DNA from: a virus
Length of the DNA: 64,000 nt
IMG/VR virus record: IMGVR_UViG_3300045988_154953
Direction: 5' to 3' (one strand)
The first letter of the stretch is position 1. Every line of letters begins with the position of its first letter. A program made the position numbers and the translations under genes. The notes beneath the pieces are model-generated. The model did no database searches and had not been told where the DNA came from. It saw only the letters and a program-made list of their open reading frames with translations. Of the stretch, positions 533 through 48,900 are shown one piece after another.

Positions 533-1369
533 ATGATAAAAATTGATGACGAGATTGTACAGATTGAAAAGTTTCCAGATGGTACACCTAGAATTAATAT
601 TGATACGAACGATATTTTAGAAAAGTATAATGTTGGTTGCGGATTTATTATAATCACATGGTTGTATGAAAATGATGCTGAGATGTTCTATCTGTTATTA
701 GTTAAGAAACACCTTGAAAGATTTTTTACTAATGTTGATTACTATTTATATCTTTCATATATACCAAATGCGAGGATGGATAGAACTAAATCAAATGATG
801 AAGTCTTTACATTAAAGTATTTCTGTGACTTTATCAATTGGTTAAAATTTTCTGTTGTTTATGTATTAGATGCTCATAGTGATGTTTCAGTAGCATTAAT
901 TAATAACTGCTTCAATGAAAATCCAAAGACTTATATCAATAATGCGCTTACTATAATCGCAAATAATGATATAATTCTATATTTCCCTGATGCTGGTGCA
1001 GCTAAACGCTACTCTGGATTATTCCCAGAGATTCCTTATTGCTATGGTGAGAAGAATAGAGATTGGAAAACAGGTAAAATCCTTGGACTTAACGTCAGAA
1101 CTAATGGTATTAAGCTTAAAGGAAAAGATATTCTGATTATTGATGATATTTGCAGCTACGGTGGTTCAATATTTTATAGTGCTAAAACATTAAAAGAACT
1201 TGGTGTTAATAAAATTTATGCTTATGCAACACATACTGAAAATTCAGTTCTTGACCATGAGAAAGGTACACTTATTAAATCATTAGAAGATGGTACAGTA
1301 GAATGTCTATTTACAACCAATAGTTTATTTACTGGTAAGCATAACAAAATCAGTGTTATGGAGGTTTAA
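533..1369 (+). CDS. ribose-phosphate pyrophosphokinase (Prs) family protein; candidate ADP-ribose pyrophosphokinase of a NARP1-type NAD+ reconstitution pathway
   Basis: Prs-like motifs are present: LSYIPNARMDR, DAHS and the PRPP-binding loop ILIIDDICSYGGS. It directly abuts the Nampt-family gene. Confidence 0.75.
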   Translation: MIKIDDEIVQIEKFPDGTPRINIDTNDILEKYNVGCGFIIITWLYENDAEMFYLLLVKKHLERFFTNVDYYLYLSYIPNARMDRTKSNDEVFTLKYFCDFINWLKFSVVYVLDAHSDVSVALINNCFNENPKTYINNALTIIANNDIILYFPDAGAAKRYSGLFPEIPYCYGEKNRDWKTGKILGLNVRTNGIKLKGKDILIIDDICSYGGSIFYSAKTLKELGVNKIYAYATHTENSVLDHEKGTLIKSLEDGTVECLFTTNSLFTGKHNKISVMEV

Positions 1370-1370
1370 A

Positions 1371-2840
1371 ATGAATAATATCTCATTTATGTTGATGGCA
1401 GATACATATAAAAATACAAATCCAGATGCAATGCCTCAAGGATTAACAAAATTAACATCATATATTACACCGAGAAAATCTATGTTTAAAAATATTGATA
1501 AAGTAGTTTTCTTTGGTTTACAGGGATTTATTAAAGAATTCTTGATTGATTTGGTGAATGATTCTTTCTTTAATAGAGATAGAAAAGAAGTTCTTAATGA
1601 ATATAAAACATACCTTGATGCACAGATTGGTTCTCATAGTTATGATATCCAACGAATCGCAGATTTATATGATTTGGGATATCTACCAATTGAGATGAAG
1701 GCGCTGCCAGAAGGTTCATTAGTATCAATGGGTGTTCCATGTATCGAACTTACAAATACTCATCCAGATTTTGCTTGGGTTGTGCAATGGATCGAATGTA
1801 TATGTCAGTCAGAAACTTTTGGTACATGTAATTGGGCTACTATGGCTCATGAGTATCGTAAATTAGCAAATGTATTCTACAACAAAACAACAGACTCTAA
1901 TCCTGCAATGGCAATGGCCGATTTTGGATTTAGAGGACTTGGTGTAGATAATGGTATTAGAGCTAGTAGTTCATGGTTGCTGTCATTTAACAAAACTTCT
2001 ACAATCCCGGCAATGCAGTATATTGATAAAATGTATTCTGCAGAATGCGCTAAAAATCATATTGGTATTGGTGCTGTAAGTCTTGAACATGCAACAGTTT
2101 GTGCTAATCTTGCTGTATGTGAAACAGAAGAAAATCTATTAAGAAGATTACTTACAACAGTTTATAAAGATACTTCGTTTAGTTACGTTTCTGATACATT
2201 CGATTACTGGTCTCTTATCAATGATACTCTCCCTAAACTTCGAAAAGAAATTGAAGAACATAATGGTAAATTCCTTGTTCGTCCAGATAGCGGTGATATT
2301 GTAGATATTTCTGTTAAAACAGTACAGAGATTATGGAAAATTTTTGGTGGAACAGTCAATCTAAAAGGTTATAAAGAATTAGATCCTAAAGTTGGCATCA
2401 TTTATGGTGATGGTTGTCAATATGAGAAAATTAAAGAAATTTGGACAAAGCTTGAAAGTTTAGGTTTTGCTGCAAATACAATTCTTTTTGGTGTTGGTGC
2501 ATTCTCATTTACAGCTATGTGTACTCCAGATGATGGTATGGTTTGTCTCACAAGAGATACATTTGGTTTCGCAATGAAAAGTACAGATTGTGTAATAGAT
2601 GATCGTGAACATACTATCCAAAAAAATCCTAAAACTGATCAGAATCATCTAAAAAAATCGCATAAAGGTTTATGTTGTGTAACAAAAGAAGATGATAAAT
2701 TTGTTTGTCATGATGGTTACACATCCGAAACCATTCCAGAAGATAATCTTCTTACAACAGTATTTAAAGATGGAAAACTTGTACGAGAAGATATATTTAT
2801 AAATATTCGTAATAGATTAAATGGAGAAAATGATGATTAA
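1371..2840 (+). CDS. nicotinamide phosphoribosyltransferase (Nampt/NadV) family protein; possibly the Namat partner of NARP1
   Basis: Nampt-family motifs are present: GFRG, LVRPDSGD and IIYGDG. A GGAGG RBS lies 8 nt upstream of the ATG at 1371; the track ORF starts at 1353. Confidence 0.8.
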   Translation: MNNISFMLMADTYKNTNPDAMPQGLTKLTSYITPRKSMFKNIDKVVFFGLQGFIKEFLIDLVNDSFFNRDRKEVLNEYKTYLDAQIGSHSYDIQRIADLYDLGYLPIEMKALPEGSLVSMGVPCIELTNTHPDFAWVVQWIECICQSETFGTCNWATMAHEYRKLANVFYNKTTDSNPAMAMADFGFRGLGVDNGIRASSSWLLSFNKTSTIPAMQYIDKMYSAECAKNHIGIGAVSLEHATVCANLAVCETEENLLRRLLTTVYKDTSFSYVSDTFDYWSLINDTLPKLRKEIEEHNGKFLVRPDSGDIVDISVKTVQRLWKIFGGTVNLKGYKELDPKVGIIYGDGCQYEKIKEIWTKLESLGFAANTILFGVGAFSFTAMCTPDDGMVCLTRDTFGFAMKSTDCVIDDREHTIQKNPKTDQNHLKKSHKGLCCVTKEDDKFVCHDGYTSETIPEDNLLTTVFKDGKLVREDIFINIRNRLNGENDD

Positions 2841-3360
2841 AATTATAGACGGTGATTTATTTAATACGAATGCTAAGTTCATCTGTCATCAAGTAAATTG
2901 TCAAGGACAGATGAATTCCGGTGTAGCTTTACAAATTAAACAGAAATATCCACATGCATACGAAGAATATATAAAACTTTTAAATCAAACATCTGGTGAT
3001 GTACTTAGTAAGATTCAAATCATACCAGTTAAATCAGAATATTTAGAATATGATTGTGGTAGTCTTGCGGTTCCATATACTGAGCAGTGGATTTGTAATA
3101 TGTTTGCTCAAGATAAATATGGTTATGATGGAAAAATGTATACATCTCTAGAAGCATTACAGAATTGTTTTACTCAATTGTATTGGCTTACATGTGAGAG
3201 GAATAATAATTTCAATGCTAAAATTGCTATGCCTTATGGGATTGGTTGCGTAAGAGGCGGAGCTGATTGGAACGTAGTATATAAAATGATAGAGGATACG
3301 TTCGTTAATAGAGAAGTAGAATTGTGGAGGTATGATAAAGATAATAGTAACAGAAGATGA
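2821..3360 (+). CDS. macrodomain protein (TARG1/OARD1-like ADP-ribose binding or hydrolase)
   Basis: IIDGDLFNT..FICHQVNCQGQMNSGVALQIKQKYP matches the GDLF / HC.s.d..MGaGIA..FK.kfP pattern of TARG1-like macrodomains. The start is ambiguous (2821, 2830 or 2833). Confidence 0.7.
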   Translation: MEKMMIKIIDGDLFNTNAKFICHQVNCQGQMNSGVALQIKQKYPHAYEEYIKLLNQTSGDVLSKIQIIPVKSEYLEYDCGSLAVPYTEQWICNMFAQDKYGYDGKMYTSLEALQNCFTQLYWLTCERNNNFNAKIAMPYGIGCVRGGADWNVVYKMIEDTFVNREVELWRYDKDNSNRR

Positions 3361-3967
3361 AATTGGAAAAATATATGGATGTTATAAAGTAATAGGTATT
3401 GCTAACGATAGAATTTCTCCTCAAGGTCAAATTAAAAAGTATTATAAATGTAAATGCATAAATTGTGGAAATACAAAAGAACTTAATGCTTATAAGGTTC
3501 GCCATAACAATTATAAATATTGTGAAAAATGCAGACCGAAACATAAAGAAACAAAAACTAAAATTGGGAAAAAATTTGGTCATTTAACTGTAGTTGAACG
3601 AGCAGATAATTATATTCAACCAAACGGTTCTATAAAAGTTGTATGGAAATGTTTATGCGAGTGTGGAAATACAATTAATGTTACGGATACACATTTAAAA
3701 TCTGGCCATACAACAAGTTGTGGTTGTTTTCACAAAAAGATAATGCAGGATTTTTTAATAAAAGATATTAGCGGTCAAAAATTTGGCAAATTGACAGTAT
3801 TGGAAAAAGCATATATAAAAAACGGGAGACAGTATTGGCATTGTAAATGTGATTGTGGGAAAACTTGCATTGCATATACGACATCTTTGTTATCTGGGAA
3901 AAGAAAATCCTGTGGTTGCCTCATATCTAAAGCAGAATATGAATTAAGTTTATATTTAGACAAATAA
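3332..3967 (+). CDS. zinc-ribbon repeat protein, probable N-terminal part of a frameshifted homing-endonuclease-like gene
   Basis: There are three repeats of FG.LTV....W.C.C.CGN....L.SG...SCGC (YKCKCINCGN, WKCLCECGN, WHCKCDCGK). The ORF ends at a TAA that one nt shift would bypass. Confidence 0.6.
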   Translation: MIKIIVTEDEIGKIYGCYKVIGIANDRISPQGQIKKYYKCKCINCGNTKELNAYKVRHNNYKYCEKCRPKHKETKTKIGKKFGHLTVVERADNYIQPNGSIKVVWKCLCECGNTINVTDTHLKSGHTTSCGCFHKKIMQDFLIKDISGQKFGKLTVLEKAYIKNGRQYWHCKCDCGKTCIAYTTSLLSGKRKSCGCLISKAEYELSLYLDK

Positions 3968-4064
3968 TATTCCATATGAATCACAATATAAATTTGACGA
4001 TTGTAAAGATATAAGATGTTTACCTTTTGATTTTGTTATATTTGATAAAAATAAAAATATAACA

Positions 4065-4298
4065 ATGGCTATCGAATTAAATGGTGCACAACATTATCAT
4101 CCTTTTACATATTCCAATGAAGATAAAGTAACTCAAATATTGAATTTAAAAGACAGGCAGAAAAAAGATAAAATTAAACGAGATTATTGTCTCAAAAATA
4201 ATATTCCGTTATTAGTAGTTAAATACACAAACTTTAATAAAAAAGAAGAACTTTTTGATAATTTCTATAAAAATATTGTAGGGGAAAAATATGCATAA
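4065..4298 (+). CDS. PD-(D/E)XK (DUF559/Vsr-like) nuclease domain, probable C-terminal part of the same split gene
   Basis: The frame is open from 3960 (..NNIPYESQYKFDDCKDIRCLPFDFVIFDK..AIELNGAQHY). The PFDF..AIE.nG.QH pattern is typical of restriction-endonuclease-fold domains. The first ATG is at 4065. Confidence 0.55.
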   Translation: MAIELNGAQHYHPFTYSNEDKVTQILNLKDRQKKDKIKRDYCLKNNIPLLVVKYTNFNKKEELFDNFYKNIVGEKYA

Positions 4299-5037
4299 CT
4301 TTAACGTAAAAAATGTGACAGATGATGTTGTTAAATGGGTTAAAAATTTATTTGAAAAAAACTTTCCTGAAAAAAATTGTTGCATTGCTTTATCTGGAGG
4401 GAAAGATTCTAGTGTTGTAGCCGCTATTAGTGTGAATGCATTAGGGAGAGATAAGGTTAAAGCTATAATGTTGCCGCAGCACGAACAAGCAGATATTGAT
4501 TATAGTATTTTATGTGCAGAACATTTAGGAATTGAATACAAAATTATTAATATTGGAGAAACTGTAGATTCTATTATATCTGAAATGAAATCCAACGGAG
4601 TAAATATTACAGAACAAGCAATTACTAATGTTCCTGCAAGAATACGAATGGCAGAATTGTACTTCTATGCTCAATGTAACAACGGCATTCCCAGTTGTAA
4701 TTGCAATCTTTCAGAAGATTGGGTTGGATATGCAACTTATGGTGGTGATGGATTTGGATCTTTTGCACCATTGTCAAATCTTACTGTAACAGAAGTCAAA
4801 GCAATTGGCAGAGAGCTTGGACTTCCAAAAGAACTGATTGAAAAAATACCAACAGATGGCTTATGCGGGAAAACAGATGAAGATAACCTTGGATTTACAT
4901 ACGATGTACTGGATAAATATATCAGAACCGGTAAAATTGACGATTTGTCAGTAAAAGAAAAGATTGATTCTATGCATGAAAAGAATCTGTTTAAGTTACA
5001 ACCAATGCCATACTTTAAATATACGCCAAATAATTAG
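4291..5037 (+). CDS. nadE: NH3-dependent NAD+ synthetase
   Basis: It has the PP-loop ALSGGKDSSVVAA. The 248-aa size and overall layout are typical of NadE. Confidence 0.8.
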   Translation: MHNFNVKNVTDDVVKWVKNLFEKNFPEKNCCIALSGGKDSSVVAAISVNALGRDKVKAIMLPQHEQADIDYSILCAEHLGIEYKIINIGETVDSIISEMKSNGVNITEQAITNVPARIRMAELYFYAQCNNGIPSCNCNLSEDWVGYATYGGDGFGSFAPLSNLTVTEVKAIGRELGLPKELIEKIPTDGLCGKTDEDNLGFTYDVLDKYIRTGKIDDLSVKEKIDSMHEKNLFKLQPMPYFKYTPNN

Positions 5038-9825: not shown

Positions 9826-11556
9826 ATGAATACAATAAAAAATACATATATACGAACATTAAAATTTAATTTAAATTTAACACCAAAATTCGAAACAGAA
9901 GAAGATAATAAAAAATATATAAATGATGTGTATTCATATCTAAGAGATGCTATATGGGCACAAAATAGAGCTATGAATATTGTTCTTGATCGAACTAAAG
10001 AAGCTTATACACTTGGACGAGGGATGAACAGGGTTAAAGAAATATATTATTCATATTCCCATCAAAAACCAATTAGTAATGACAAAAAAGAAAGCTTCTT
10101 AGAATCATTGTTGCAGTATGCACCTATAGACGATCAATTTGTAAAAAATGAAGTTAAAAAATTACGTAAATTCTATGAATCTAAAAAGAAACCACCAAAA
10201 GAAGAAACTGTTTCTAAAAATTGTGAAGCTTTAAAAAATAAGTACATAAAATATGTTGGTAAATCAAAAGATGATGTCAAACGAGAATTAGATTTACTTG
10301 AAAATTATTGTGCATATCCAGAAGATATTTATGAAAAATTTGCTAACGGATTAAGCACACCTGCATATATAAAACAGAAAGTAGAATCTTATTGGAAACA
10401 GGATGGAATAAAAACAAAAGTTATTTACTCGATGGATGAAAATCTCAGACGAATAAAAGATGCTCCATTGTTCATACCACCAAATGTTTTTTACAATAAA
10501 AAAGATGAATTAATCGGTTTGGTATATGATTATACTGACTATATATCTTTTTTAGAAGATTTAGAAAATAAACGAAATGTAAATATATATTTAAGTATTC
10601 CATATAAAAAAGGTGAAGATAAATTAAAATTCAAATTAGTTCTAGGGAATCCACATAAGTCTCGTGATTCTAGATTATCCATAAAAAGAATTTTTGAAGA
10701 AGAATATAGAATTAAAGGCAGCAGTATTGGATTTACGAAGAATAAAGAAACTGGCAAAAATACAAATTTAACTTTATATCTTACTGTTGAAGTCCCACAA
10801 AATAAAGATAATACTCTTGATGAGAATGTAGTTGTTGGAGTAGATGTCGGCATCGCTATTCCATGTGTATGTGCTTTAAATAACGATAAATATACAAGAG
10901 AAAATATTGGAAGTTATGATACTTTATTTGCTAAAAGAACCCAGTTTAAAATGCAGAGAAGTAGATTGAATAGTCAATTAAAATTATCAAAGGGTGGACA
11001 TGGAAGAAAAAGAAAGTTAAAGAAATTAGAATTACTTTCAGGAAAAGAGAAAAATTACGTTGATACAGAATGTAGAAAGTATGCAAGTGATGTAATTAAA
11101 TTTTGTTTAAAACATCATGCTAAATATATTAATTTAGAGCACCTAAAAGGATATCGAGAGAATCCTAAAGTATTAGCTGGATGGAGTTTTTATAAAATCC
11201 AAACATATATTGAACAAGCAGCTGAAAAACATGGAATTATTGTAAGGAAAATTAATCCATGTTATACATCACAGATTTGTAGCGTATGTGGAAATTGGCA
11301 TCCAGAGAATAGACCAAAGGGTAAATTAGGGCAAGCATATTTTAATTGTCATAATATTGATTGTAAAACTCATAATACAGATTTGTATAAATATGGTATT
11401 AATGCAGACTTTAATGCTGCTAGGAATATAGCAATGTCAACATTATTTATTACCGATTCTGATGAGATCACAAAGAAACATTGGAAAGAAGCCAGAGAAT
11501 ATTATGGTATAGATGAATCGGATGATAAAGAAGAAAAATTAAATAAAGTAGCCTAA
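9826..11556 (+). CDS. cas12f: Cas12f (Cas14)-like / TnpB-derived RuvC nuclease, 576 aa
   Basis: The split RuvC triad is intact: VVVGVD340VG, INLE438HL and NAD528FNAARNIA. A zinc ribbon is present (C485xxC488 ... C508x4C513). GHGRKRKLKKL and the motif order are collinear with Cas14a1/Un1Cas12f1 as I recall it. Confidence 0.8.
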   Translation: MNTIKNTYIRTLKFNLNLTPKFETEEDNKKYINDVYSYLRDAIWAQNRAMNIVLDRTKEAYTLGRGMNRVKEIYYSYSHQKPISNDKKESFLESLLQYAPIDDQFVKNEVKKLRKFYESKKKPPKEETVSKNCEALKNKYIKYVGKSKDDVKRELDLLENYCAYPEDIYEKFANGLSTPAYIKQKVESYWKQDGIKTKVIYSMDENLRRIKDAPLFIPPNVFYNKKDELIGLVYDYTDYISFLEDLENKRNVNIYLSIPYKKGEDKLKFKLVLGNPHKSRDSRLSIKRIFEEEYRIKGSSIGFTKNKETGKNTNLTLYLTVEVPQNKDNTLDENVVVGVDVGIAIPCVCALNNDKYTRENIGSYDTLFAKRTQFKMQRSRLNSQLKLSKGGHGRKRKLKKLELLSGKEKNYVDTECRKYASDVIKFCLKHHAKYINLEHLKGYRENPKVLAGWSFYKIQTYIEQAAEKHGIIVRKINPCYTSQICSVCGNWHPENRPKGKLGQAYFNCHNIDCKTHNTDLYKYGINADFNAARNIAMSTLFITDSDEITKKHWKEAREYYGIDESDDKEEKLNKVA

Positions 11557-12930: not shown

Positions 12931-13806
12931 ATGAAAGTAGTCAAGAGAGATTGTACGCTGGTAGATTTTGATAAAAATAAAATTTACACAGCGATAATGA
13001 AAGCGATGAAGGATGGATCAGGAATTGTGAAGCCGAAGGTAGCAGAAGACATCTCAAATGAGATATATGAAATGCACAAAAATGACGATGAAATCGACAT
13101 TTCAACCATCGAATCAGAGGTCTTCGATAAATTGATTACAAAAAAACAAAGACTTACTGCCAGAGCTTATGAAGGATATAGAAGTAAACGAGAGCTGCAA
13201 CGAGAATATAACACTATAGATGATGAAATAATCGGCCTTGTCGAAGATAAAAATGAATATTGGAAAGATGAAAATGCAAACAAAAATCCAATATTAAATC
13301 CAACGAAAAGAGATTATATTGCCGGTTCAGTAAGTACAGATGCAACAAAAAGATATTTATTATCACCAGAAATAGTACAAGCTCATATGGATGGTATTAT
13401 TCACTTTCATGATGCAGATTATTTTATTCAACATATGCATAATTGTGATCTAGTTAATCTTGAAGATATGTTACAAAATAACACTGTAATTAGTGGAGTA
13501 TTAATTGAAAAACCACATTCTTTTTCTACTGCTTGTAATATAGCTACACAAGCCATTTCACAAATAGCAAGTAATCAATATGGGGGTCAAAGTGTTTCTT
13601 TGGCACATCTCGCTCCTTTCGTAGATATTTCAAGACAAAAAATAAGAGAAGAATTAGTAGAAGAATTTTCTTTATTGGGTTTCTCTAAGGGTGGAATTAT
13701 AGACGAAGATTTTAATGCAGTTGTAGAAAAACGTTTAAAGAAAGAAATTGAAAAAGGTGTTCAGACTATTCAATATCAATTAGTTACACTTATGACAACA
13801 AACGGT
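12931..13806 (+). CDS. nrdD: anaerobic ribonucleoside-triphosphate reductase, exon 1 (ATP-cone and N-terminal part)
   Basis: MKVVKRDCTLVDFDKNKIYTAIMKA is an ATP-cone. The ORF ends ..LMTTNG, directly before an intron-like sequence. Confidence 0.85.
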
Positions 13807-14861
13807 TAATTTTGGCTGTTGTAAAATCTTGTGAACCATGCCAATGGGTGTCTAATAAATTAGGCTAACGGTCAACTAACCTCAAGGGTAAGGTGGTAAG
13901 AGAACCTAAGTCCTGTAATAAGGATATGGTAATACCGTGTTAAGCGTTTTGTTTATAAAAATAAAAAAAGAAAGGGGGGGAATGAAAAATGTATGGATAT
14001 ATATATTTAACTACAAATCTAATCAACGATCGAAAATATATAGGAAAACATAAAAGTGAATTTTATGACGATAAATATTATGGGAGTGGAAAGATTCTTT
14101 TGCAGGCTATATCAAAATATGGTATTGAAAATTTTACGAATGAAATATTATACGAAGCGGATTACGCAGAAGAATTAAATAAAAAAGAAAAAGAATATAT
14201 TTCATTATATAGAGGAAAATATGGAAAACAAATGTATAATATAGCGTCTGGAGGAGACGGGGGAGATACATACTCATCTAAATCTGAAGAAGAAAAAGAA
14301 GATTTTGTTAAGAAAATGGAGAAAATAAATAGAGACAGATGTTCTTCGAAAGAATTTAAGATACAAGCTTCTGAACGTTTAACTAAAAAATATTCCAACA
14401 TTGAAGAAAGAAAATTACAATCCGAAAGAATTAAAAAAGCTTGGGATAATGAGCAATTAAAGGAAGATCAGAGCGAGCGATTAAAAAATTATTATAAAAC
14501 ACATAAAAAAGAAAATTCATATAATAACATTCCATGTGGGATTAAATTTAATGGGGTAAAATATGAATTTGAAAGTGTTAAGCAATTAAAAAAATTCATA
14601 AAAGAAGAGTTTAATTTTGTCCCAGGAAATTCAAAGATAAAACAGATGATGATTGATGGGACTAATGGTATTCCATATGTTTCTTTCTTTAAAAAATACA
14701 GTAATTTGAATGGCGCGTTACTTTATTATAAACAAAACGAAAATGTAGAGACTATGGGTGATGAATGTAGCCCAGTAGAGCATGAGATAGGCACATGCTC
14801 CAAGTGCAAGACTGAAATAGAAGAGATAGTCCGCTCTGCATAGAAATATGCAGATGGGGTG
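13807..14861 (+). mobile_element. group I intron in nrdD carrying a GIY-YIG homing endonuclease gene
   Basis: The last exon nt is T (ggT|taatttt) and the last intron nt is G (ggggtG|caagcc). Joining gives ..TTNG|QAPFITIF.. in frame. Structured GC-richer segments flank the ORF. Confidence 0.8.
13989..14843 (+). CDS. GIY-YIG homing endonuclease (intron-encoded)
   Basis: MYGYIYLTTNLINDRKYIGKH..YYGSG is the GIY-YIG motif. The gene lies inside the nrdD interruption. Confidence 0.85.
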   Translation: MYGYIYLTTNLINDRKYIGKHKSEFYDDKYYGSGKILLQAISKYGIENFTNEILYEADYAEELNKKEKEYISLYRGKYGKQMYNIASGGDGGDTYSSKSEEEKEDFVKKMEKINRDRCSSKEFKIQASERLTKKYSNIEERKLQSERIKKAWDNEQLKEDQSERLKNYYKTHKKENSYNNIPCGIKFNGVKYEFESVKQLKKFIKEEFNFVPGNSKIKQMMIDGTNGIPYVSFFKKYSNLNGALLYYKQNENVETMGDECSPVEHEIGTCSKCKTEIEEIVRSA

Positions 14862-16229
14862 CAAGCCCCTTTTATTACAATTTTCATGTATCTTAATGAA
14901 GCCAAAAACGAACAAGAAAAACACGATTTAGCTTTATTAATCGAAGAAATGCTTCATCAAAGAATCAAAGGAGTAAAAAATAAAGAAGGAGTTTATGTAG
15001 CACCTGCATTTCCTAAACTAATTTATGTTTTGGAAGAAGATAATATTCATGAAGATTCAAAATATTGGTATTTGACAAAATTAGCTGCGGAGTGTTCTTC
15101 TAAACGTTTAGTTCCAGATTATATTTCAGAAAAAATTATGCTTGAAACAAAAGGTGATGTATACACCTGTATGGGATGTAGATCATTTTTAACAGTAGAT
15201 AGATTTTCTGATAAAGTTTCTAACATTGCCAATGCGAAAAATTACGAACCTGACAAACACAAATATTACGGACGCTTCAATCAAGGTGTAGTTACACTTT
15301 CACTACCAGATATTGCTTTATCTTCAGAAGGTGATTTCGATACATTTTGGAAAATTTTTGAAGAAAGAACTGAATTGTGTCATAAAGCACTTAGAATCAG
15401 ACATGAAAGATTGCGCGGTACATTATCTGATGTTGCTCCTATATTGTGGCAAGATGGTGCTCTTGCTCGATTAAAAGAACATGAAAAAATCGATAAACTT
15501 CTTTATGATGGTTATTCAACTATATCTTTGGGATATGCCGGTTTATATGAATGTGTAAAATATATGACTGGACATTCTCATTCTGATGAAGGTATTGGCG
15601 AAGAGTTTGGATTAAAAGTTATGCAAGCTCTTAATGATAAGTGTGCTCAGTGGAAAAATGCTGAAAATATAGATTATAGTTTGTATGGTACGCCTCTCGA
15701 AAGTACAACGTATAAATTTGCAAAATGCTTAAAGGCTCGTTTTGGTAAAGATGTATTTATTAGATTGGATGGATTTGATAGAAATTATATAACTAATTCA
15801 TATCATATTCCAGTGTTTGAGCCAATTACAGCGTTTGAAAAACTTAGAATAGAAGCAAAATTCCAATTATTAAGTCCTGGTGGAGCCATTTCTTATGTAG
15901 AAGTACCAAGCATGTCTCATAATATTAATGCTTTGATCGAAGTTATCAAATTCATTTACTATCACATTCAGTATGCAGAAATTAATACTAAAAGTTGCTA
16001 CTGTGAAAAATGTGGCTATGATGGAGATATTCCTCTTGTACTAGATGAAAATGGTAAATATAGATGGGAGTGTCCACAATGTGGCAATATAGATAATACT
16101 ACCATGGATATTGCTTTTAGAGTCTGTGGTTACATTGGTACTGCAAAAAATGGTGGTAATCAAGGACGATATGGTGATGTACATGATCGTGTATATCACT
16201 TAGATGATATAGAATATAATGAGAAATAG
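14862..16229 (+). CDS. nrdD: anaerobic ribonucleoside-triphosphate reductase, exon 2 (C-terminal part with glycyl-radical site)
   Basis: It begins QAPFITIF. It contains the C-terminal Zn site CEKCG..CPQCG and the glycyl radical motif RVCGYIG. Confidence 0.85.
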   Translation, partial: QAPFITIFMYLNEAKNEQEKHDLALLIEEMLHQRIKGVKNKEGVYVAPAFPKLIYVLEEDNIHEDSKYWYLTKLAAECSSKRLVPDYISEKIMLETKGDVYTCMGCRSFLTVDRFSDKVSNIANAKNYEPDKHKYYGRFNQGVVTLSLPDIALSSEGDFDTFWKIFEERTELCHKALRIRHERLRGTLSDVAPILWQDGALARLKEHEKIDKLLYDGYSTISLGYAGLYECVKYMTGHSHSDEGIGEEFGLKVMQALNDKCAQWKNAENIDYSLYGTPLESTTYKFAKCLKARFGKDVFIRLDGFDRNYITNSYHIPVFEPITAFEKLRIEAKFQLLSPGGAISYVEVPSMSHNINALIEVIKFIYYHIQYAEINTKSCYCEKCGYDGDIPLVLDENGKYRWECPQCGNIDNTTMDIAFRVCGYIGTAKNGGNQGRYGDVHDRVYHLDDIEYNEK

Positions 16230-16717: not shown

Positions 16718-17296
16718 ATGAGATTTGCAAGTATCAGATCCATGGACATTAGCAATGGAGAGGGTGTGGGTGTCGCCCTCTTCGTTCAAGGATGTCATTT
16801 GCATTGTTATAATTGTTTCAATCAAGAGACATGGGATTTTAACGGTGGCAAGGAATGGACAGAAGATATAAAAAATAAATTTATAAAACTAATTGATCAT
16901 CCATACATAAGTCGAGTTAGCTTTCTTGGCGGTGAACCATTGGCGGATGAAAATGTAGAAACTGTATTCAAAATTATAGAAGAGATTCAATCTATATATC
17001 CAAACAAGAAAATTTGGATATATACAGGATATACCTTAGAAACTATTAAGCAAACACTTGATAGTTATACTAAAATACCTGATTATTTATCTCTTTGTTT
17101 AGAACCAATACCAGTAAACGCAATTTATGATATCAAACGTTGGAAAACAATCGAATTATGTGATGTATTAGTAGATGGTCAATTTATTGATAGTCAAAAA
17201 AATATGAATTTAAGATTTAAAGGATCATCTAACCAAAGAATTATTGATGTTCAGAAATCATTAAAACAGAATAAAGTAGTTTTATATTACAATTAA
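16718..17296 (+). CDS. nrdG: anaerobic ribonucleotide reductase activating protein (radical SAM)
   Basis: GEGVGVALFVQGCHLHCYNCFNQETW carries the CxxxCxxC cluster. It lies adjacent to nrdD. Confidence 0.85.
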   Translation: MRFASIRSMDISNGEGVGVALFVQGCHLHCYNCFNQETWDFNGGKEWTEDIKNKFIKLIDHPYISRVSFLGGEPLADENVETVFKIIEEIQSIYPNKKIWIYTGYTLETIKQTLDSYTKIPDYLSLCLEPIPVNAIYDIKRWKTIELCDVLVDGQFIDSQKNMNLRFKGSSNQRIIDVQKSLKQNKVVLYYN

Positions 17297-19669: not shown

Positions 19670-20857
19670 TTGAATAATGTGAAAGCAATTATAAAAGGAA
19701 TGACATTATATAAACGCAGCGATGGCCGATATGAAGGCCGTATCACGGTTAATGGCAAGCGTAAGAGTTTTTATGGTACAACGAAAGTTGAGGTGAAGAA
19801 TAAAGCCAAAGAGTATTTAACAAAAGTTGAAAACGGCTATGTTGAGCCTACTAAAATTATATTCAATGAATACATAGAATACTGGCTGAAAACTTATAAG
19901 AAGAATAAGATTCAAGATTCGTCATACAGTCGTCTGTACACAACATATTTACATCAAATTAAACCAACAATAGGTCAAATGAAGATGGGGAACATTAAGA
20001 CGAAAGACATCCAAAATCTGATTGATGAATATGCTAATCCAACCAGTGCTGATGTAAAACCTTTGTCGCTGTCTGGCTTAAAGAAGCTTACGCATCTTAT
20101 AAGGCCATGTATGCAAATGGCTGTTACAGAAGGACTGTTGCAAAAGAATCCCTGTGATAATGTGGTCTTTCCGCAAGAAGACTGTATTCAAGTAGATACA
20201 AAGCAGCAGTACAGTTTGTCAGATGATGAATTGAAAAGAATTAGAATGGCAGCGTTGACGAAGTATAAAAATGGACGGTATCGCAGTCGGGATTGGATTG
20301 TTCTTTTGATTATGTTGAACACAGGTTTACGTGTCGGTGAAATGTTGGCTCTGACATGGAAGGATATTGATTTTGAGAATCGAACAATGCATATCTGTAA
20401 GACGCTTCAAAGTAACATTAGAAACTATGATGATTTAGAACATGTTGTTTATTATTCGAAGATTAAGAAGTCTGCAAAGACAAAGAACGGTGTCAGATAT
20501 ATTTCATTGAATACGCAGGTTCTTCAGTATCTTCAGATGTTAAGGGGCTTTGATGAAGAGAATAAAATCAAATCCGATTATGTTGCATGTACAACTGTAG
20601 GGACTATGAATTGTTCAAGAAATCTACAAAGAAGTCTTGACAGATTAGTAAAATTTGCAGGAATACAACCAGAGTCACATGTATCATTACATACTTTAAG
20701 ACATACGTTTGGATCAACATTATTAAGACATGGGATAGGTATCGAAGTTATTAGCAAACTAATGGGACATGCAAATATTACTATTACATATAACAAATAT
20801 ATCCATGTCATACAGGAAGAGCAGGCCAAAGCAATGAATTTAGTTAATGTGTGCTGA
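19670..20857 (+). CDS. int: tyrosine integrase (phage integrase family)
   Basis: Catalytic pattern: LRVGEMLAL, HTLRHTFGS and LMGHANITITYNKYIH. It has an N-terminal SAM-like/arm-binding region. The TTG start follows GGAGGTG. Confidence 0.9.
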   Translation: MNNVKAIIKGMTLYKRSDGRYEGRITVNGKRKSFYGTTKVEVKNKAKEYLTKVENGYVEPTKIIFNEYIEYWLKTYKKNKIQDSSYSRLYTTYLHQIKPTIGQMKMGNIKTKDIQNLIDEYANPTSADVKPLSLSGLKKLTHLIRPCMQMAVTEGLLQKNPCDNVVFPQEDCIQVDTKQQYSLSDDELKRIRMAALTKYKNGRYRSRDWIVLLIMLNTGLRVGEMLALTWKDIDFENRTMHICKTLQSNIRNYDDLEHVVYYSKIKKSAKTKNGVRYISLNTQVLQYLQMLRGFDEENKIKSDYVACTTVGTMNCSRNLQRSLDRLVKFAGIQPESHVSLHTLRHTFGSTLLRHGIGIEVISKLMGHANITITYNKYIHVIQEEQAKAMNLVNVC

Positions 20858-23075: not shown

Positions 23076-24083
23076 TTAAATGCCAAACATTGAATTTATT
23101 GTATCTTCCGAATGATCTTTTAAATATCCTTGTGTAGTACTTGGATCTGAATGATGTGCAAATATCTGTATCTGCTCTAATGGATATTTTTTAGGATTTC
23201 CATTTTCGTCAAGCAATCTTAAATCAGTTCCTTGCGAAAGACATTCCAATCTACTATGTCGCATTGTATGAGTAAATATATTGCATGGTTCACCACGTAC
23301 TTCTGATAAAATTTTAGATATACTTACGATTCTATCATATAATACATTCGAATTTGAAATAGGCTCTTTGTGATCTCCTGAACCTTTAATCCACAATGAA
23401 TCAATATCATCATCACCACGCCATTCAAGATATTTCTTAATTAATTCTCTTGTATCATCTAAATATACAAGAGGAAATTTTTTCCCACGTTTACCGATAA
23501 CAATATTGGTTTTATTTCCGTCAAGTAACCCATGCTTTTGGATTTGAAATAATTCATTTTTTCGCCCAGCAGAATCAAAACCAATACTCCATAATACGGC
23601 TAGCTGCCATTTTTCTTCAGCAACAAGAATATCTCTAACCTTAACAAATTCATCATATGTAAAAAAGAAATCATCTTCATCATCTTTAACACGAGACTTT
23701 GGAATACCTTTTACCTTTTTCGCATAGTTAATTTCATATTCATAATCATCATCATCTTCACAGAACGTAAGAAGACTATTGATTGCACTTTTGAGTCTAT
23801 TTGTTCTGGCAGCAGACATTTCACATTCTTCTGTGAAATATAAACTAAGATTACGAAAATCCTTCTTTTTTAAATCGAGAATACAACGGTTATCTAACTC
23901 TCGAAGCACATAAATCAAGATGATTCTTAGATCGTTACGATAGCCTGATATCGTTCCTTTGCTCTTTTTTCTCTGTTTATACTCTTGAAGGAAATCGTCC
24001 ATTATTCTTTTATTCTCTTTGTTTACCTGTTCCCACAATTCTTCTGTATAAAAATTATGATAGATACGTCCTCTAGTAGCCAT
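23076..24083 (-). CDS. second tyrosine recombinase (XerC/D-like)
   Basis: Catalytic pattern: DSAGRKNE (Arg), HTMRHSR (H-x-x-R), AHHSD and TQGYL (Tyr). Confidence 0.8.
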   Translation of the reverse strand: MATRGRIYHNFYTEELWEQVNKENKRIMDDFLQEYKQRKKSKGTISGYRNDLRIILIYVLRELDNRCILDLKKKDFRNLSLYFTEECEMSAARTNRLKSAINSLLTFCEDDDDYEYEINYAKKVKGIPKSRVKDDEDDFFFTYDEFVKVRDILVAEEKWQLAVLWSIGFDSAGRKNELFQIQKHGLLDGNKTNIVIGKRGKKFPLVYLDDTRELIKKYLEWRGDDDIDSLWIKGSGDHKEPISNSNVLYDRIVSISKILSEVRGEPCNIFTHTMRHSRLECLSQGTDLRLLDENGNPKKYPLEQIQIFAHHSDPSTTQGYLKDHSEDTINSMFGI

Positions 24084-42981: not shown

Positions 42982-45900
42982 TTAAATGTTCAATTCTATT
43001 ACAACACCATAAGATTCTGATGGTTGAGCAAATCCACTATAACTACCATCTGCTTTAACATAATAATAATAAGCAGCATAGCCAACATTAGGAGAACGAG
43101 TAATATAATCAACAGCTATATTGTTTGAATCTTTTCGGATTCTATCTTCATCATTGATCATATAATCAATTGGATCGTCTTCGTTAATATATGGTTCAGT
43201 TGATATAGTTGATGATCCCAATTCATAAATGGCTGGTATATACACATAGCAATCTGTTTCAGCAATGTTATTTTTATTATTTTTGTCCATATCAGCATAT
43301 TTCACTTTAACCTTTTTTACGAGTTGTTTAATTTGAACTGGTAAACCTTTGTAAAATCTTGTATTAAGCCAAGTACTTAATTGTGTTCTTCCCCATCCAC
43401 CTTCATTAGTATAAGAGTTATCTATCGATCTCTTAATGTTAAGTGTGTGAGAAGCTAAAAATGTCATGGATGATCGCTTTCCAGAACCATCGGAAAGATA
43501 TTTACGTTTAAAACCACACATTTGTACATTCACTTTTTCATGAATATATTCTGCAAGATTTTTACATGCTTCTTCGCCAAGATCCGTATACCAAAGTTTT
43601 GACCAATGAATAGTACCTTTAGCATAACGTTCATAAGAACCATCATCAGCTTTGACACAACCAAACACTAATGTAGAAGAAGAAATAGTAGATTTATTTC
43701 TTTCTAATTTAACCGTATTAACAGATGTACCGGAAAGATTTGACATGTAAACATGTAAATTATTTTCACCTTTAACATGTCTCAATACTAACATTTCTCG
43801 ATTGGTACTTGTTGCACATTGAGCAGAAGATGTACCCCATTGAATTTTTGGTGTACTGTTATATACTAATTTAAAACCATCACTACCATCTGATTTAAAA
43901 CATTGCATAAGAGTAGAGTTATTTGTATTTCCTGTAGCAAATTCAAAGTCTACTGCAAATACAAAATCTCGGTCAATGTCCATTATAGCAACATTAGTGT
44001 CGATATAATTATTCCCAGTAAACACTGTTTTTTCATTGATGAAAGTTTTACTTTGGATATCATCATAATCATAATCATTTCCGGTTGTAAAATTAAAATC
44101 ATCCATTAATTCAACGATGCTTTGTTCTATTCCAACTTTTGTCAATGCATACATTTCAACAGGTGTCATTTCCGATAAATCCTTATTATCGAAATATCCG
44201 CTTGAATATGAACATATATCAAACACAGCGTTAATCGTTTTATCACCATCTACATATCCAGATTTATCCCAACGATTAAAAAGATAATATTTATACGCAG
44301 TTTCCTCACCGGTATAAGTAGGAATATCACCTGTATAAAATACAGTAGTTCCATAAGGAGCACTTGTTTCTTGCATAACAGTAGATTTAGATACAAATTT
44401 TATCGTGTAATTTCGGATAGTTTTAGAATATGTCGCTGTAAAAATCATGTTCTCAAACATATTAACAAAATTAGTATCCCATCCTTTAAATGTGTAATTA
44501 TATTGAATCGTACTCTTTTGAGTAGGAGTTTCAATAGGATCAATTTCTCGTGTAATAGGATCTACAGGTTTATTACCTTTATCAACATATTGGATATCAA
44601 GAATTGTTCCATCTGTATTTTTGAATGTAGCTGTAAATTGTTCAATAATGGAATCATAAGTTACATCTAAATCATTCCATGCATCATTATATCTTTTAAG
44701 TTCTTGTTGTCTTATAACTGGTACATGAACATTACCTGTCAATACAGATTGATCAGCGTTATATCCATTTTTATCAATACCACCCATTTTATAAATACGT
44801 TCAAGAAGAGAAGTATTATCAAGCTGCCAATCTATACCAATGATTCTTGCTCTGTTAATTCTAGGAGATTTTTCAAGCAAATCTTTTACATTGATTGTGT
44901 TACAGTTTTCTAAGATAACTGTGCTAATTGAATCGTATCCAGCAATAGAAAGATTGGTTAAATAAATTAAGTTTCTCATGTTTATAGAGGTGAGGGTTTC
45001 CGGTAAAAGAGCAGTTCTGATATTACCGCCATTTGCAAATAAAATACCTCTTAATCCTGATCCTGTTGCATAAAATTCTCTAAGATTCATACATTTGGAA
45101 AGATCCAAACTACTTACTAAATTAGGTGTATTTCGAACATCCAATTTTTCAAGAAGTTTATTATTCCCAATGACAAGATTTGTTAAGAATGTATTAGAGT
45201 AACCTGTAGTTGTGTTACCAACAATTAATTCCTTTAATCTTTCTGCTTTTGAGAAATCGTTATCATGGATATAACATGCAGATACATCACCAACAGATTG
45301 AATTCTAGATGCACCATAAATTAATACAGCAGTATCATCCATTGTACTATATGGGCATGTGATATTATATTGTCGACCAGCTTTTGCACGTATCTGAGTA
45401 GGAGATGAGTTACCAAACATAACTGACAAATACATATCAGAGAAAGGTGTTAAATGAAGAGTGTAATCAGGTTTAACAATAGCATCTTTTGGAGTATTAC
45501 ATCTAAACATAATTTGATCAGATGTAATTGTATTACCAATGAACTTAGTAGCCATATAAACTTCTTGGTCACGTTCGAATTGTCGTCTTTGGTATTTCTT
45601 TTTGCCGTTCATCATCTGTTCAAGGAATCGAGTGTTTCCATCTCTATATGGACGTTCGTATTTACGTACATAGTCAATTCGCCATAATTCTTCTGGCCAT
45701 TCATTTTGTATCTCGTCAAATTGATTAATTAACGAAGATGCACTCCAGCAGTTTTTACTTTCGCGTGATATATATGTCTTTTGTAAATCTGATTTCATTA
45801 AATCACGAATTCTACAGAAGAATACTGATTCAGCTGCATTAAATATATATCCAGATGATGGATCTCCATCTGTACGATAGTCAGTATCTTCCTTACCATA

Positions 45901-48900
45901 TGTCATAGTAAGCTCGCCGCTGTTATTGATTCCAAGAGAACTATCGTTATCATAATCCCACAGATCATAGCGATAGCCATTATTAATACTTGCAGCAGTA
46001 TCATCTATTGTATAATAATTTGCTTTTTCACCCATCTCAGCAGCTTCACTTGTAGAAATATAATGTTTAGCCCAATGCCAAAATGTATTTTTACTTCTAT
46101 TATCTATCATCGTATATCTAAGTGTGAACAAATAAAAATACAAAGCCGAATCAACAATAAACCAATCTTGAAGTTTATTTTTGAAATCCTCATCACTAGA
46201 GGTAATTACAAACTCATAAAAATCTCTCCAAATTTGTCTGTTTTTAGTTCTAATCTTTTCTTTCTCTTCATCCGTAGATGTTGGATCACCGTCTTTAGAA
46301 TCTCCGCAACAATCATATCTAAATTCGAATGAGCCATCCCAATTGTTATAAAGATTGTCATATGCTTCGTTTCCAGTTGTCCATTCAGCTTTAGAGATAG
46401 GATATTTCATAGAACTATCTGAATTTGTTACGCCTGTTTGGAAAGTTGAGTTTGGAAGAGTATTGTCACTTATTTCGATACAGAATTCATTCATATCATC
46501 TGGATCATAAGCTCTACTTACATCTGTCTTCTTAGAGTCACCGATGTTACCCAACGCATAATAATGCCATTCACAATCCTGGAATTCTCTATGAGTAGAA
46601 ACATCAGGATCGCTTTCTTTAATAAATACAACACAGTTCACAAATTCCATATCATTTTTAACTCTTGGATCACGTTTCTGAGCAGGAGATGTATATGGAA
46701 GATAGGTATTATAACGTTTCTGTAAGTACGCATTATTGACCATTTCAGATGAAGCCACGTTCACTTTGATATTGAACCAGTTATTTGGAATAGATGTTCT
46801 AGTTAAAGAAATTTTACCTGTTCCATCGTTATATTCTGTTCCATCACCCAAAATTAATTTAGTAATATAATTTGGATCTAAATCTATCTTACTTGTAACT
46901 TGATGTTTACCATCGAATCCACAAATAACATCTATATTACGTCCACTAGCACCATATTCGTTACTAGTCGTACCTTGTCCTGAATGATACGCATTGATAA
47001 ATTTCCAATTATCAAGAATTGGATCACCGTTTTTGTAAATACATTCAACGGAAGTGTCTTTTATGAAATCTTTTTTATTATTTGTAAAGTGAGGAGCTTC
47101 GATTTTAATGACTCTCATATTAGGACATGCGTTTGCAACTGAATCAGGAGTTAAAAGATTATTTTCATCGTAAATTTGATTTCTTGTATAACGATTGATC
47201 ATTTCCGTTGCTGTACGTGCATCTGCAATGAAGTTAGAAAGAATAGCAGAACTCGTAAGACTCGTATTATAAGCCTTCATACGATAGATTGAAACATCAC
47301 AATCAGGAGAACCGATAGTGATTGGAACAGGAGATTCCTGAGTAAATGAATAATCATTTGTATAACTCATTGGTCTACACGGTGTACCATCTTCATACGA
47401 CATAACAATAGGAATATCCGTATCTTTATTAATGTTGAATTCCCACTCGATAATATCTTCTTCACTATATGGAATATAAAGGGATTTTGCGCTAGATTTA
47501 ATATATGCTTCATGAACATTCATTTGAAGACCAATTGAAGTTACATCTCCAGATTGACATGTTAAGAAAGTAGCATTACTTTTAGCAACACTTGTTGTTT
47601 TAAAAATAAATTTAAATTCTTTACCATTTTTTCTAGCATCATCCGCAAATAGATTGTACGAGATAGTAGCAGTGGTGCCAGCTTTTACTCCAAAATATTG
47701 ATCACCATTCCCATCAATCTGATAACCACCATTGACCCAATCAAAGTTTTCAGATACTGTCATCTTAATATCTGGATTATCTTTATCTACCCATAGTCTA
47801 TCTGAATCACTATTAGATTTACCTGTTGGATTAAAGTCAAACATGAGACCAGCTGTTACTGGTTCTACATCTATATCAAGTTTTTCAATTGTAACAGTAA
47901 GAGTTTTGACCGTTTGTCCACAAGTGATAGTCAATGTATGTTGACCAATATCAGATGATTTATATTGCCATGTTTGAGTATTGCTATCAATTGTAAGAGT
48001 AGATGTAACTTTTCCATCGACAGCTAATGTAATTTCTGGTGTTTCTGTCGTTGGATCATAAACAGTATAAACAATGTTTGTTGCATCATATTGTTTAGCT
48101 GTAAATTTTTGCTGTACACAACCAATCACAGGAATTGTACTCTGACTATCATACCAAATAATATCTTTTGTGATATGATTTGATTCAATTGTATTACCAT
48201 TTATTTCAGCTGTCATATATACGTCTAACAAATGTGATCCATGAGATTGAGTCGGAAGAGAATAGGACATTGGAACACCAGATGAAGATGTTGTAACTTT
48301 TCCAATTTCTTTATTGTCAAGAACAAAATGAACATCTTTTACTACAGCACCATATGGAGTATAATCAAATGCTACATTGTCAATTGGATAAGTTAATTTA
48401 TCGTTAAAAGTAGATTCTAAACGAACATCGACTTTTTGTACCGTCCAATTCTTTGATACTAAAGTACCCGCATCGTCTGTAATCTGAAGACTTACCTTTT
48501 GGCTACCAATTGTAATAAAGTCAGTAACATCAAAAGAATTTTCGCCAGAAATAGCTGTATTTGTAGCTACAATAGTACTGCCAACTTTCCATGTAGCCTT
48601 ACCTTCAAGAACTGGATCACCTGAAGAATCTACACCAGAAAAATTGTATTTAATAATAACTTTGTCTGTTAATGTAACAACAAGAGGTGTTTTTGTTACG
48701 TATTCAATTTTTAATGTACTTGTTGTACCTCCACCACCAGATCCGCCAGTAATAACCATTTTTGCTTTAACAGTTCTTTCTTCATTCTCTTTACCTTCAT
48801 TTTTGATTTCGAAAAAAGCTAAAGTGTTTTTACCGACATTTTCATCCTCTTCATCATTGTATTTGATATCGTATGTTAAACGTGGATCTTTATCTATTCC

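Follow-up and report, generated by a model that had tools for sequence, protein, structure and literature searches.

Depletion of NAD+ is among the commonest bacterial strategies against phages, to which NARP1 is the principal phage response known. NARP1 is defined operationally by an Adps-family gene that lies close to a Namat-family gene (Osterman et al. 2024, bioRxiv 10.1101/2024.02.11.579819), and its route leads from ADP-ribose (ADPR) to ADPR pyrophosphate (ADPR-PP), which is then joined with nicotinamide to give NAD+. Here we describe a related gene cluster, which occupies positions 533–5037 on the plus strand of the 64,000-nt virus stretch IMGVR_UViG_3300045988_154953 (this whole stretch is called the window below) and encodes a Prs-like, a Nampt-like and a macrodomain protein as well as the NAD+ synthetase NadE. 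Sequence comparisons make it fairly likely that these genes, together with a nicotinamidase gene (pncA) just upstream of the window, form a five-enzyme phage operon which rebuilds NAD+ via the nicotinate branch after the action of NADase defences, i.e. a deamidated version of the extended pathway NARP1-AP.

The latter is one of several systems with which this locus has to be compared. About NARP1-AP it has been reported that 15% of NARP1 operons encode a Poa1p-like macrodomain protein, Adpp, which forms ADPR from the ADPR-1''-phosphate that the aRES defence produces, and that the extended pathway is recognized by a PF01661, PF14519 or PF20016 protein within two genes of NARP1 (Osterman et al., January 2026; bioRxiv 10.64898/2026.01.28.702374). 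NARP2 (Nampt plus NMNAT, e.g. in Vibrio phage KVP40) and NARP3 (PnuC plus NadR; PMC13464706) share with our locus the restoration of NAD+ during infection, and gut jumbo phages carry Preiss–Handler clusters of the composition pncB-nadD-nadE (Li et al. 2024, PMC11662467). All of these systems are already described. What appears to be novel here is a NARP1-AP operon joined to both ends of a Preiss–Handler pathway, with a predicted change in base specificity. A literature search, whose coverage was incomplete and which does not guarantee priority, found no paper joining NARP1 or Namat with NadE/NAD synthetase, nicotinamidase or deamido-NAD; nicotinate and its adenine dinucleotide (NaAD) go unmentioned in the Namat structure paper (PMC12774641), and ADPR, Adps and NARP go unmentioned in the jumbo-phage paper (PMC11662467).

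With NARP1 the locus shares adjacent Prs- and Nampt-family genes, a transferase of the Namat clade, the residues and the short C-terminus of Adps and a presumed input of ADPR from NADase defences, but NadE is always and PncA usually part of the operon and the transferase is predicted to yield NaAD instead of NAD+. We infer all enzymatic steps, those of PncA, the macrodomain protein, Adps and NadE from family membership and that of the Namat-like protein from its active site and genomic context. The route would start from the reaction of host NADase defences, established in the literature, that splits NAD+ into ADPR (or ADPR-1''-phosphate) and nicotinamide. PncA, to judge from its family and catalytic residues, would deamidate nicotinamide to nicotinate; the macrodomain protein, by homology and context, would convert ADPR-1''-phosphate to ADPR if the defence had generated this form; and Adps, by homology, would produce ADPR-PP from ADPR and ATP. 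The variant Namat (Asp to Ser, Ala to Ser, Gly to Lys), in view of its pocket, its covariation with NadE and the equivalence of its operon slot to that of another enzyme pair, would then join nicotinate and ADPR-PP to NaAD, from which NadE would form NAD+ with ATP and NH3, as expected at the family level and from an orthologue that lies downstream of NadD. Thus, of the NARP1 route proposed in the initial annotation, the Adps/Namat type holds, but a serine in the pocket points to nicotinate as the base and NaAD as the product; likewise, NadE is present as proposed, but is predicted to be the integral last step and not an add-on, as the Ser/Ala change in the pocket covaries with it. As a counter-defence island, the cluster remains plausible.

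Base specificity of the Namat-like protein

The initial annotation had favoured a NARP1-type pair of Adps and Namat over bona fide Prs and Nampt, and our comparisons bear this out for both proteins, with the Prs-like protein being treated further below. The best matches of the Nampt-like protein in the Protein Data Bank (PDB) are Namat structures (9w5x/9w5w with 322.7 bits, 9ke8 with 274.6 bits), true NAMPT scoring about 137 bits. In a neighbour-joining tree the protein is nested among canonical Namat, and the catalytic core, i.e. Phe189, Arg192, Arg306, Asp308 and the catalytic His, is entirely conserved. At the sequence level, its placement in the Namat clade and not in the Nampt clade is therefore supported.

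The pocket for the base is different. In the Namat crystal structure seven residues contact nicotinamide, with Asp215 forming a hydrogen bond to its amide, and the D215A exchange in SPbetaL1 Namat reduces NAD+ formation from nicotinamide 8.1-fold (PMC12774641). For human NAMPT, D219S has been reported as a switch of substrate affinity (PMC4919578, PMC7096376) and D219A to abolish activity (PMC4919578). In the window protein the Asp215 position is taken by Ser210, with the motif reading KTST in place of the canonical GTDT; moreover, the nicotinamide contact Ala242 is replaced by Ser, Gly213 by Lys, and His187 is replaced as well, all of which sets the protein apart from the Namat of NARP1. A profile–profile alignment places the Ser of phage PncB-type nicotinate phosphoribosyltransferase (NaPRT; motif GTS) in the same Asp215 column. 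Human NAMPT D219S and PncB-type NaPRT thus have Ser at the specificity position in common with the window protein, in which, however, the change is a natural one, is accompanied by further pocket substitutions and has occurred in a lineage that uses ADPR-PP and not PRPP.

Moreover, this position covaries with the presence of NadE. We compared 105 full-length Namat-like genes with their flanks, obtained from two IMG/VR scans (with the window NadE and with SPbetaL1 Namat as queries) and from phage records. Where NadE was found within the flank (75 loci), the Asp215 column holds Ser (42) or Ala (33) and never Asp, whereas the 30 loci without NadE in the flank have Asp (29) or Glu (1). A set of 150 cluster representatives (50% identity), drawn from 1.8 billion proteins, includes 44 of the Ser/Ala type and 101 of the Asp type. 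Discrimination between the two types is strongest at columns 215 and 242, after which come 187, 304, 240, 239 and 213; since these are at or beside the listed nicotinamide contacts, two of the seven contacts (215 and 242) being systematically replaced, the base-binding pocket of the Ser/Ala type is, as read from the alignment, systematically remodelled. Taken together, the exchange of Asp for Ser and the perfect covariation with NadE make nicotinate the probable base and NaAD, not directly NAD+, the probable product. The window protein is thus predicted to be a nicotinate ADP-ribosyltransferase that makes NaAD.

The linkage between the Ser/Ala type and NadE is kept down to about 40–45% identity and across differing genome contexts, and the module is widespread: it comprises no fewer than 44 clusters at 50% identity, among them one contig whose neighbour genes look bacterial. 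PncA/Adps-like/Namat/NadE operons also harbour two distant representatives of the Ser/Ala type whose adenine clamp (see below) is fully canonical; one of these operons adjoins genes for an NrtR-like regulator and a chemoreceptor in a neighbourhood that looks bacterial. In the ‘code 15’ phage Phass-1 the genes for a nicotinamidase, a Prs-like, a Nampt-like and a small HAD-like protein and NadE stand in a row. A scan of bacterial genomes with the window Namat returned one short contig of a metagenome-assembled genome (MAG) only. On contig L141 (from SRR22388207), genes for an NrtR-like regulator, an Adps-like protein, PncA, a Namat variant and NadE are found beside that for a methyl-accepting chemotaxis protein, an arrangement that resembles a copy of the module on a bacterial chromosome, controlled within the NAD regulon.

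The strongest contextual argument comes from sister loci in which the same slot is filled differently. In about 18 loci PncB and a NadD-type adenylyltransferase, with no Adps or Namat, are encoded between PncA and a NadE which is 72–83% identical to that of the window. This PncB is bona fide (NF003704, 483 bits with a cut-off of 379; TIGR01514, 403 with a cut-off of 270), and the NadD-type enzyme of one such locus (L008), where NadE is 80% identical, scores 102.7 bits with TIGR00482, just under the cut-off. PncB and NadD together convert nicotinate to NaAD. With this pair being replaced in the same PncA/NadE frame, the Adps–Namat cassette should by analogy also deliver NaAD to NadE, i.e. the Ser/Ala-type Namat should join nicotinate and ADPR-PP to NaAD. 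It is also through these sister loci, which carry exactly PncA-PncB-NadD-NadE, that our operon resembles the Preiss–Handler cluster of gut jumbo phages, with which it further shares PncA/NadE, the deamidated branch and an origin in a gut phage contig of 215 kb (the threshold for jumbo phages in the respective paper being 200 kb). Unlike that cluster, it has Adps, a Namat variant and a phosphatase in place of PncB and NadD, and the ribose–adenylate part of the product would come from ADPR and not from PRPP plus ATP. In a further locus (L021) the adenylyltransferase is NadR-type and NMNAT-like instead of NadD-type, and in loci of this PncA/NMNAT-like/PncB/NadE composition a NudE/ADPR-pyrophosphatase-like Nudix gene lies 3' of nadE (8739–9317 in L021), whose product may dispose of ADPR where Adps is absent.

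These relationships suggest a history in which a NARP1 cassette displaced PncB–NadD in a phage Preiss–Handler operon, with Namat then adapting to nicotinate because the co-encoded nicotinamidase removes nicotinamide. That such a deamido-NARP1, combining a nicotinate ADP-ribosyltransferase with PncA and NadE, arose by this replacement seems to us slightly better than an even proposition.

Many Namat homologues (P0242–P0390) have a length of 540–910 aa, and their alignment to the query falls into two to four pieces, being interrupted near query residues 313–325, i.e. around RPDSGD. Several of the long proteins have internal insertions there that carry no Pfam annotation, which suggests that a single hotspot often takes up inteins or other insertions. 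A check of the long homologues for PncA–Namat or Adps–Namat fusions found none; the N-terminal extension of P0254 has weak HNH/AP2 matches, consistent with a read-through gene call.

Companion enzymes and competing readings

The nicotinamidase came to light outside the window. The initial annotation had pointed out that the cluster reaches the window edge and that an NMN adenylyltransferase (NMNAT) gene immediately upstream would speak against a NARP1 route. A 215,394-bp contig from a human-gut metagenome (ERR589797; L136) encodes a protein identical to the Prs-like one and makes 10 kb upstream of the window readable. Here the cluster continues through a radical-SAM gene to pncA, so that the upstream gene is one for a nicotinamidase and not for an NMNAT. 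This PncA, encoded directly 5' of the radical-SAM gene, is an isochorismatase-family protein of 181 aa (PF00857, 86.4 bits); among solved structures it is nearest to the P. horikoshii nicotinamidase 1ilw, with which the Asp-Lys-Cys triad and the Asp/His/His metal site align in six out of six residues. Among 97 NadE loci, 77 have a Namat variant, and in 68 of these PncA is encoded in cis. No NadD, NMNAT, NadR, PncB, PnuC or Nudix gene was detected among 51 scanned open reading frames (ORFs) of the window or in the 10 kb upstream, PncB-type NaPRT and NadD thus being absent from window and upstream flank alike, and tblastn searches of the whole window with NadD, NMNAT and NadR queries gave nothing below E 0.4; the missing NMNAT, from which a NARP1 route had originally been argued, is thereby confirmed for this region. 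In none of the Adps/Namat operons among the loci compared is there a NadD or NMNAT. The locus is therefore also unlike NARP2 and NARP3, as its region lacks NMNAT, NadR and PnuC and its Nampt-family protein is of the Namat type and not NadV.

As for the macrodomain protein, its description as TARG1-like is adequate for the fold class but not for the active site. By sequence it matches the DarG macrodomain (5m31, E 2.5e-7) and Poa1p (6lfu, E 1.4e-5), with TARG1 at E 0.16; a fold search with an AlphaFold2 model (46 homologues, pLDDT 89) returned DarG (E 1.8e-10), Poa1p (E 2e-9) and TARG1 (E 1.4e-8), and the model fits DarG, Poa1p, BT1257 and TARG1 about equally well, such that the fold does not discriminate among Poa1p, DarG and TARG1. 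The catalytic Lys of DarG (K80) and TARG1 (K84), however, corresponds to Gln97 in an HMMER alignment with T. aquaticus DarG, and this Gln is invariant in the 46 homologues. The removal of DarT-type adducts that had been considered is thus a poorer fit than the function of Adpp, i.e. an ADPR-1''-phosphate phosphatase as in NARP1-AP. In line with this, the protein belongs to PHROG 335 ‘phosphatase’ (E 8.9e-39), annotations of its phage homologues read Poa1p-like or ADP-ribose 1''-phosphate phosphatase, and, as in the operational definition of NARP1-AP, it matches PF01661 above the cut-off and its gene overlaps the 3' end of that for Namat. On these grounds it is a candidate Adpp. The locus shares with NARP1-AP a macrodomain of the Poa1p/TARG1/DarG fold inside a NARP1 operon, which would be expected to turn ADPR-1''-phosphate into ADPR; it differs by the order Adps-Namat-Macro instead of Adps-Macro-Namat, by the added PncA and NadE and by a HAD-like substitute in many relatives. 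In the slot between Namat and NadE, 37 of the 77 loci encode a macrodomain protein, about 24 a small HAD-like protein and about 16 neither of the two. The HAD-like protein, which in Phass-1 (L083, 7576–7995) has 139 aa, a FDFDDTV (DxDxT) motif and a weak match to the BT0820 family, is possibly a second, non-homologous ADPR-1''-phosphate phosphatase. The alternation between the two proteins supports a phosphatase role as well as a pathway based on ADPR over one based on PRPP.

Some observations nevertheless weigh against a nicotinate-specific pathway fed by ADPR; they concern the phylogeny of the Namat variant, a single locus, the adenine clamp, the residues of the Adps-like protein and the relatives of NadE, and are given here together with the alternative readings on which they bear. 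All Ser/Ala-type proteins form a single clade, so that the covariation with NadE represents one ancient switch that was maintained and not many independent events. In addition, there is one possible exception to this covariation, an Ala-type Namat (L139) that is not followed by NadE within the 6.4 kb of downstream sequence on a 5'-truncated 8.4-kb contig. If the linkage were merely inherited synteny, the operon could be a canonical NARP1-AP, which joins nicotinamide and ADPR-PP to NAD+, with the Asp-to-Ser exchange being neutral or tuning affinity, and with NadE and PncA as mere neighbours that boost host salvage or de novo flux; phages such as cyanophages and pelagiphages indeed encode NadE without NARP1. 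We consider this reading quite unlikely, since a co-encoded nicotinamidase would destroy its presumed substrate, since D215A costs SPbetaL1 Namat 8-fold in nicotinamide-dependent activity and D219A kills that of human NAMPT, since two of the seven nicotinamide-pocket residues and several of their neighbours are systematically replaced, and since the adjacency of NadE persists at 40–45% protein identity in differing contexts, including the bacterial-looking contig. On the same L139 contig (JAZNJG010000088.1, from a Bacilli MAG) the Ala-type Namat operon adjoins genes for a NadR-like protein (NMNAT plus kinase) and PnuC, a NARP3-like arrangement; two NAD+ restoration systems are thus direct neighbours.

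The main alternative concerns the other substrate. Here the Prs-like protein would be a true phosphoribosyl pyrophosphate (PRPP) synthetase (PRPS), the Namat variant would make nicotinate mononucleotide (NaMN), host NadD would convert this to NaAD and the phage NadE would finish the pathway, i.e. the operon would be a PRPP-based Preiss–Handler booster and a deamidated analogue of NARP2 in which ADPR goes unused. In the window subclade the adenine clamp of Namat is indeed disrupted: the canonical motif GSFTYQYNTRD reads GAFSFT-insertion-CLTRD, with 10 additional residues at the position of Tyr396 (position 7 being Cys), and the SCL residue Arg40 is Met, both of which are further differences to the Namat of NARP1. 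The altered clamp could, as far as the sequence tells, entail a loss of the preference for ADPR-PP. PRPP can also be used by Namat in vitro (PMC12774641), the same PncA/NadE frame carries PncB and NadD in sister phages, and Preiss–Handler gene clusters are known from gut jumbo phages (PMC11662467). Yet most, but not all, Ser/Ala-type proteins have the insertion, and others keep the full clamp motif in the same type of operon; PncB operons bring along their own NadD, which Adps/Namat operons never do; and a macrodomain or HAD-like phosphatase would have no role in a PRPP route.

The identity of the Prs-like protein bears on this alternative. The protein shares 35% identity with the biochemically characterized SPbetaL1 Adps over 97% of its own length; that enzyme pyrophosphorylates ADPR and makes no PRPP from ribose-5-phosphate (bioRxiv 10.1101/2024.02.11.579819), and the window protein is closer to it than to any PRPS (best solved PRPS, an archaeal one, E 1.5e-14; B. 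subtilis, E 1e-8). Its Pfam matches to Pribosyltran and Pribosyl_synth stay below the gathering scores (Pribosyl_synth 19.9 versus 27), and, as for SPbetaL1 Adps, so do those to all PRPS models of NCBIfam below their cut-offs (TIGR01251 69.8 versus 113; NF002095 72.6 versus 296). With its 278 aa (272–280 aa in Adps) it ends about 30 residues short of the PRPS C-terminus, and a missing C-terminal alpha11–alpha12 module has been described as a signature of the Adps family (PMC13586617). The residues F18, R87, H121, D161, K185, D212 and D213 (ICP1 Adps numbering) occur without exception in the 75 NadE-linked homologues as well as in the window protein, whose PP loop DDICSYGGS is similar to DDLSSFGGT of SPbetaL1. 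Such residue-level features, however, do not separate Adps cleanly from archaeal-type PRPS: the ICP1 Adps residues are largely shared with PRPS or are variable among Adps proteins and therefore do not prove ADPR specificity, so that we dropped this kind of discrimination and only family-level and context arguments hold for Adps. These arguments support that the protein is of the Adps type, and we regard the PRPP-based reading as unlikely.

Finally, the window NadE, a single-domain protein with a LSGGKDSS P-loop and no glutaminase domain, resembles not only the P. horikoshii NadE (2e18), its best PDB match with E 1.6e-36, but also the NMN synthetase of F. tularensis (3fiu, E 2.5e-28), with which it further shares a short length of 248 aa. 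This could mean that nicotinate is turned into NaMN, that NadE acts as an NMN synthetase (NaMN to NMN) as in Francisella and that an NMNAT is encoded elsewhere, with the NadR-type NMNAT-like protein instead of a NadD-type one in L021 fitting such an order. This is very improbable, as the best match is archaeal-type and the archaeal NadE of M. jannaschii acts as a true NAD synthetase and lacks NMN synthetase activity (PMC3376133), as in L008 a NadD-type enzyme adjoins the 80%-identical NadE, and as there is no NMNAT in operon, window or 10 kb upstream. From these family relationships the conversion of NaAD to NAD+ is predicted to be the last step of the nicotinate-based pathway.

If this pathway exists as proposed, it includes a new enzymatic reaction (nicotinate + ADPR-PP to NaAD) and implies that a few pocket residues reprogram the base specificity of Namat, which would provide an annotation rule (GTDT versus [KNR]T[SA]T, plus A242S) for hundreds of metagenomic ‘Nampt’ genes. 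It would also bridge the literatures on NARP1 counter-defence and on ‘NAD-jumbo phage’ Preiss–Handler clusters, and suggest that phages of gut anaerobes, where nicotinamide is deamidated, have adapted NAD+ repair to nicotinate. Such phages would depend on ammonia and extra ATP, but resist a defence or host state that removes nicotinamide. We speculate that the pathway retains the ‘on demand’ trait of NARP1, i.e. its need for ADPR, while using the pyridine form which prevails in hosts with an active nicotinamidase.

Operon layout, flanks and the remaining window

The four genes of the initial annotation all lie on the plus strand at the positions it had given (table 1). As it had noted, the Prs-like gene abuts the Nampt-like gene, with a spacer of one base; the Nampt-like and macrodomain ORFs overlap. 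What it had not described are two ORFs between the macrodomain and NadE genes and the extension of the cluster upstream past the window edge.

Table 1. Features of the operon and their coordinates in the window
Feature	Position	Strand	Basis
Small radical-SAM protein, C-terminal ~176 of 210 aa	1..530	+	CHYTCPYC cluster motif, GGGDP
Adps-like protein (ADPR pyrophosphokinase, NARP1 type), 278 aa	533..1369	+	PHROG 619 ‘ribose-phosphate pyrophosphokinase’, E 1.3e-64
Namat-like transferase, 489 aa, Ser/Ala variant	1371..2840	+	PF04095, PF18127; PHROG 448, E 8.6e-146
Codon of Ser210 in Namat-like protein (= SPbetaL1 Asp215, human NAMPT Asp219)	1998..2000	+	KTST vs GTDT
10-aa insertion AMCTPDDGMV in Namat ‘selectivity clamp helix’ motif	2514..2543	+	Alignment
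Macrodomain protein, 179 aa, candidate Adpp	2821..3360 (alternative start 2833)	+	PF01661, 24.0 vs cut-off 22
HNH homing endonuclease, N-terminal part, zinc-finger-like repeats	3332..3967	+	PHROG 374
HNH homing endonuclease, C-terminal nuclease-domain remnant, other frame	4065..4298	+	PHROG 559, 9084, 7140
NadE, NH3-dependent NAD+ synthetase, 248 aa	4291..5037	+	PF02540, E 6.5e-45; TIGR00552, 152.6 vs 63.65

The two additional ORFs correspond to an HNH endonuclease which is encoded by one intact ORF (about 320 aa) in L007 and relatives, is split by a frameshift here and is probably a pseudogene. That the two ORFs are a single gene with a recoded stop was considered and rejected, as their frames differ, which makes them a frameshifted remnant. 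The same endonuclease precedes NadE in operons of the NARP1 type as well as of the PncB/NadD type, and its homing site appears to be 5' of NadE.

A Coprococcus catus assembly contains a near-identical, compact operon on one of its contigs (L140, 931 kb), where the endonuclease is absent and the macrodomain and NadE genes overlap. Its macrodomain protein is 85% identical to that of the window. At the DNA level the macrodomain gene is 88% identical, with NadE aligning only partly and at 71%, which indicates a mosaic exchange of modules inside the operon. Compared by megablast with 50,697 phage records, the cluster had no match at the nucleotide level.

The radical-SAM gene between pncA and the Adps gene starts 103 nt before the window (L136:9366). 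Its product has a Radical_SAM match of E 3.8e-4, i.e. below the cut-off, belongs to phrog_17662 and is weakly NrdG2-like; the gene is wedged between PncA and Adps in about 14 of the 97 NadE loci and is located elsewhere or absent in the others. Just 5' of pncA a short ORF (62–77 aa; L136 8572–8760, L140 6804–7037) is conserved, which matches only the C-terminal part of PTH2. In the 400-nt gap 5' of this PTH2-like ORF there is a single strong promoter-like site (TTGACA-17-TATAGT with TG); a scan of the operon region for promoters and terminators gave no signal above chance.

The remaining genes of the window include those for anaerobic nucleotide metabolism (NrdD/NrdG, dUTPase and guanylate kinase), two integrase-like genes, a TnpB-like gene and tail genes. 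The IS605/TnpB (Cas12f-like) gene encodes 576 aa (9826–11556), and the tyrosine-integrase-like genes are at 19670–20857 and 23076–24083. Together with the operon copy in Coprococcus catus, these genes suggest a temperate phage with a Lachnospiraceae host. A crass-like phage with recoded stops was rejected, as the window has no tRNAs, long intact table 11 ORFs and tail genes of the BppU/DUF6558 type, with the caveat that the relative Phass-1 is a member of a ‘code 15’ clade.

NrdD is broken into two ORFs (12931–13809 and 14859–16229) by a homing-endonuclease ORF (13989–14843), probably an insertion of the intron or intein type, with NrdG following at 16718–17296. The structural and tail block on the minus strand contains two huge ORFs, at 42982–50163 (2393 aa) and 58192–63666 (1824 aa), between which a GIY-YIG/NUMOD homing endonuclease (57022–58020) and a NYN-domain protein (55659–56303) are encoded.

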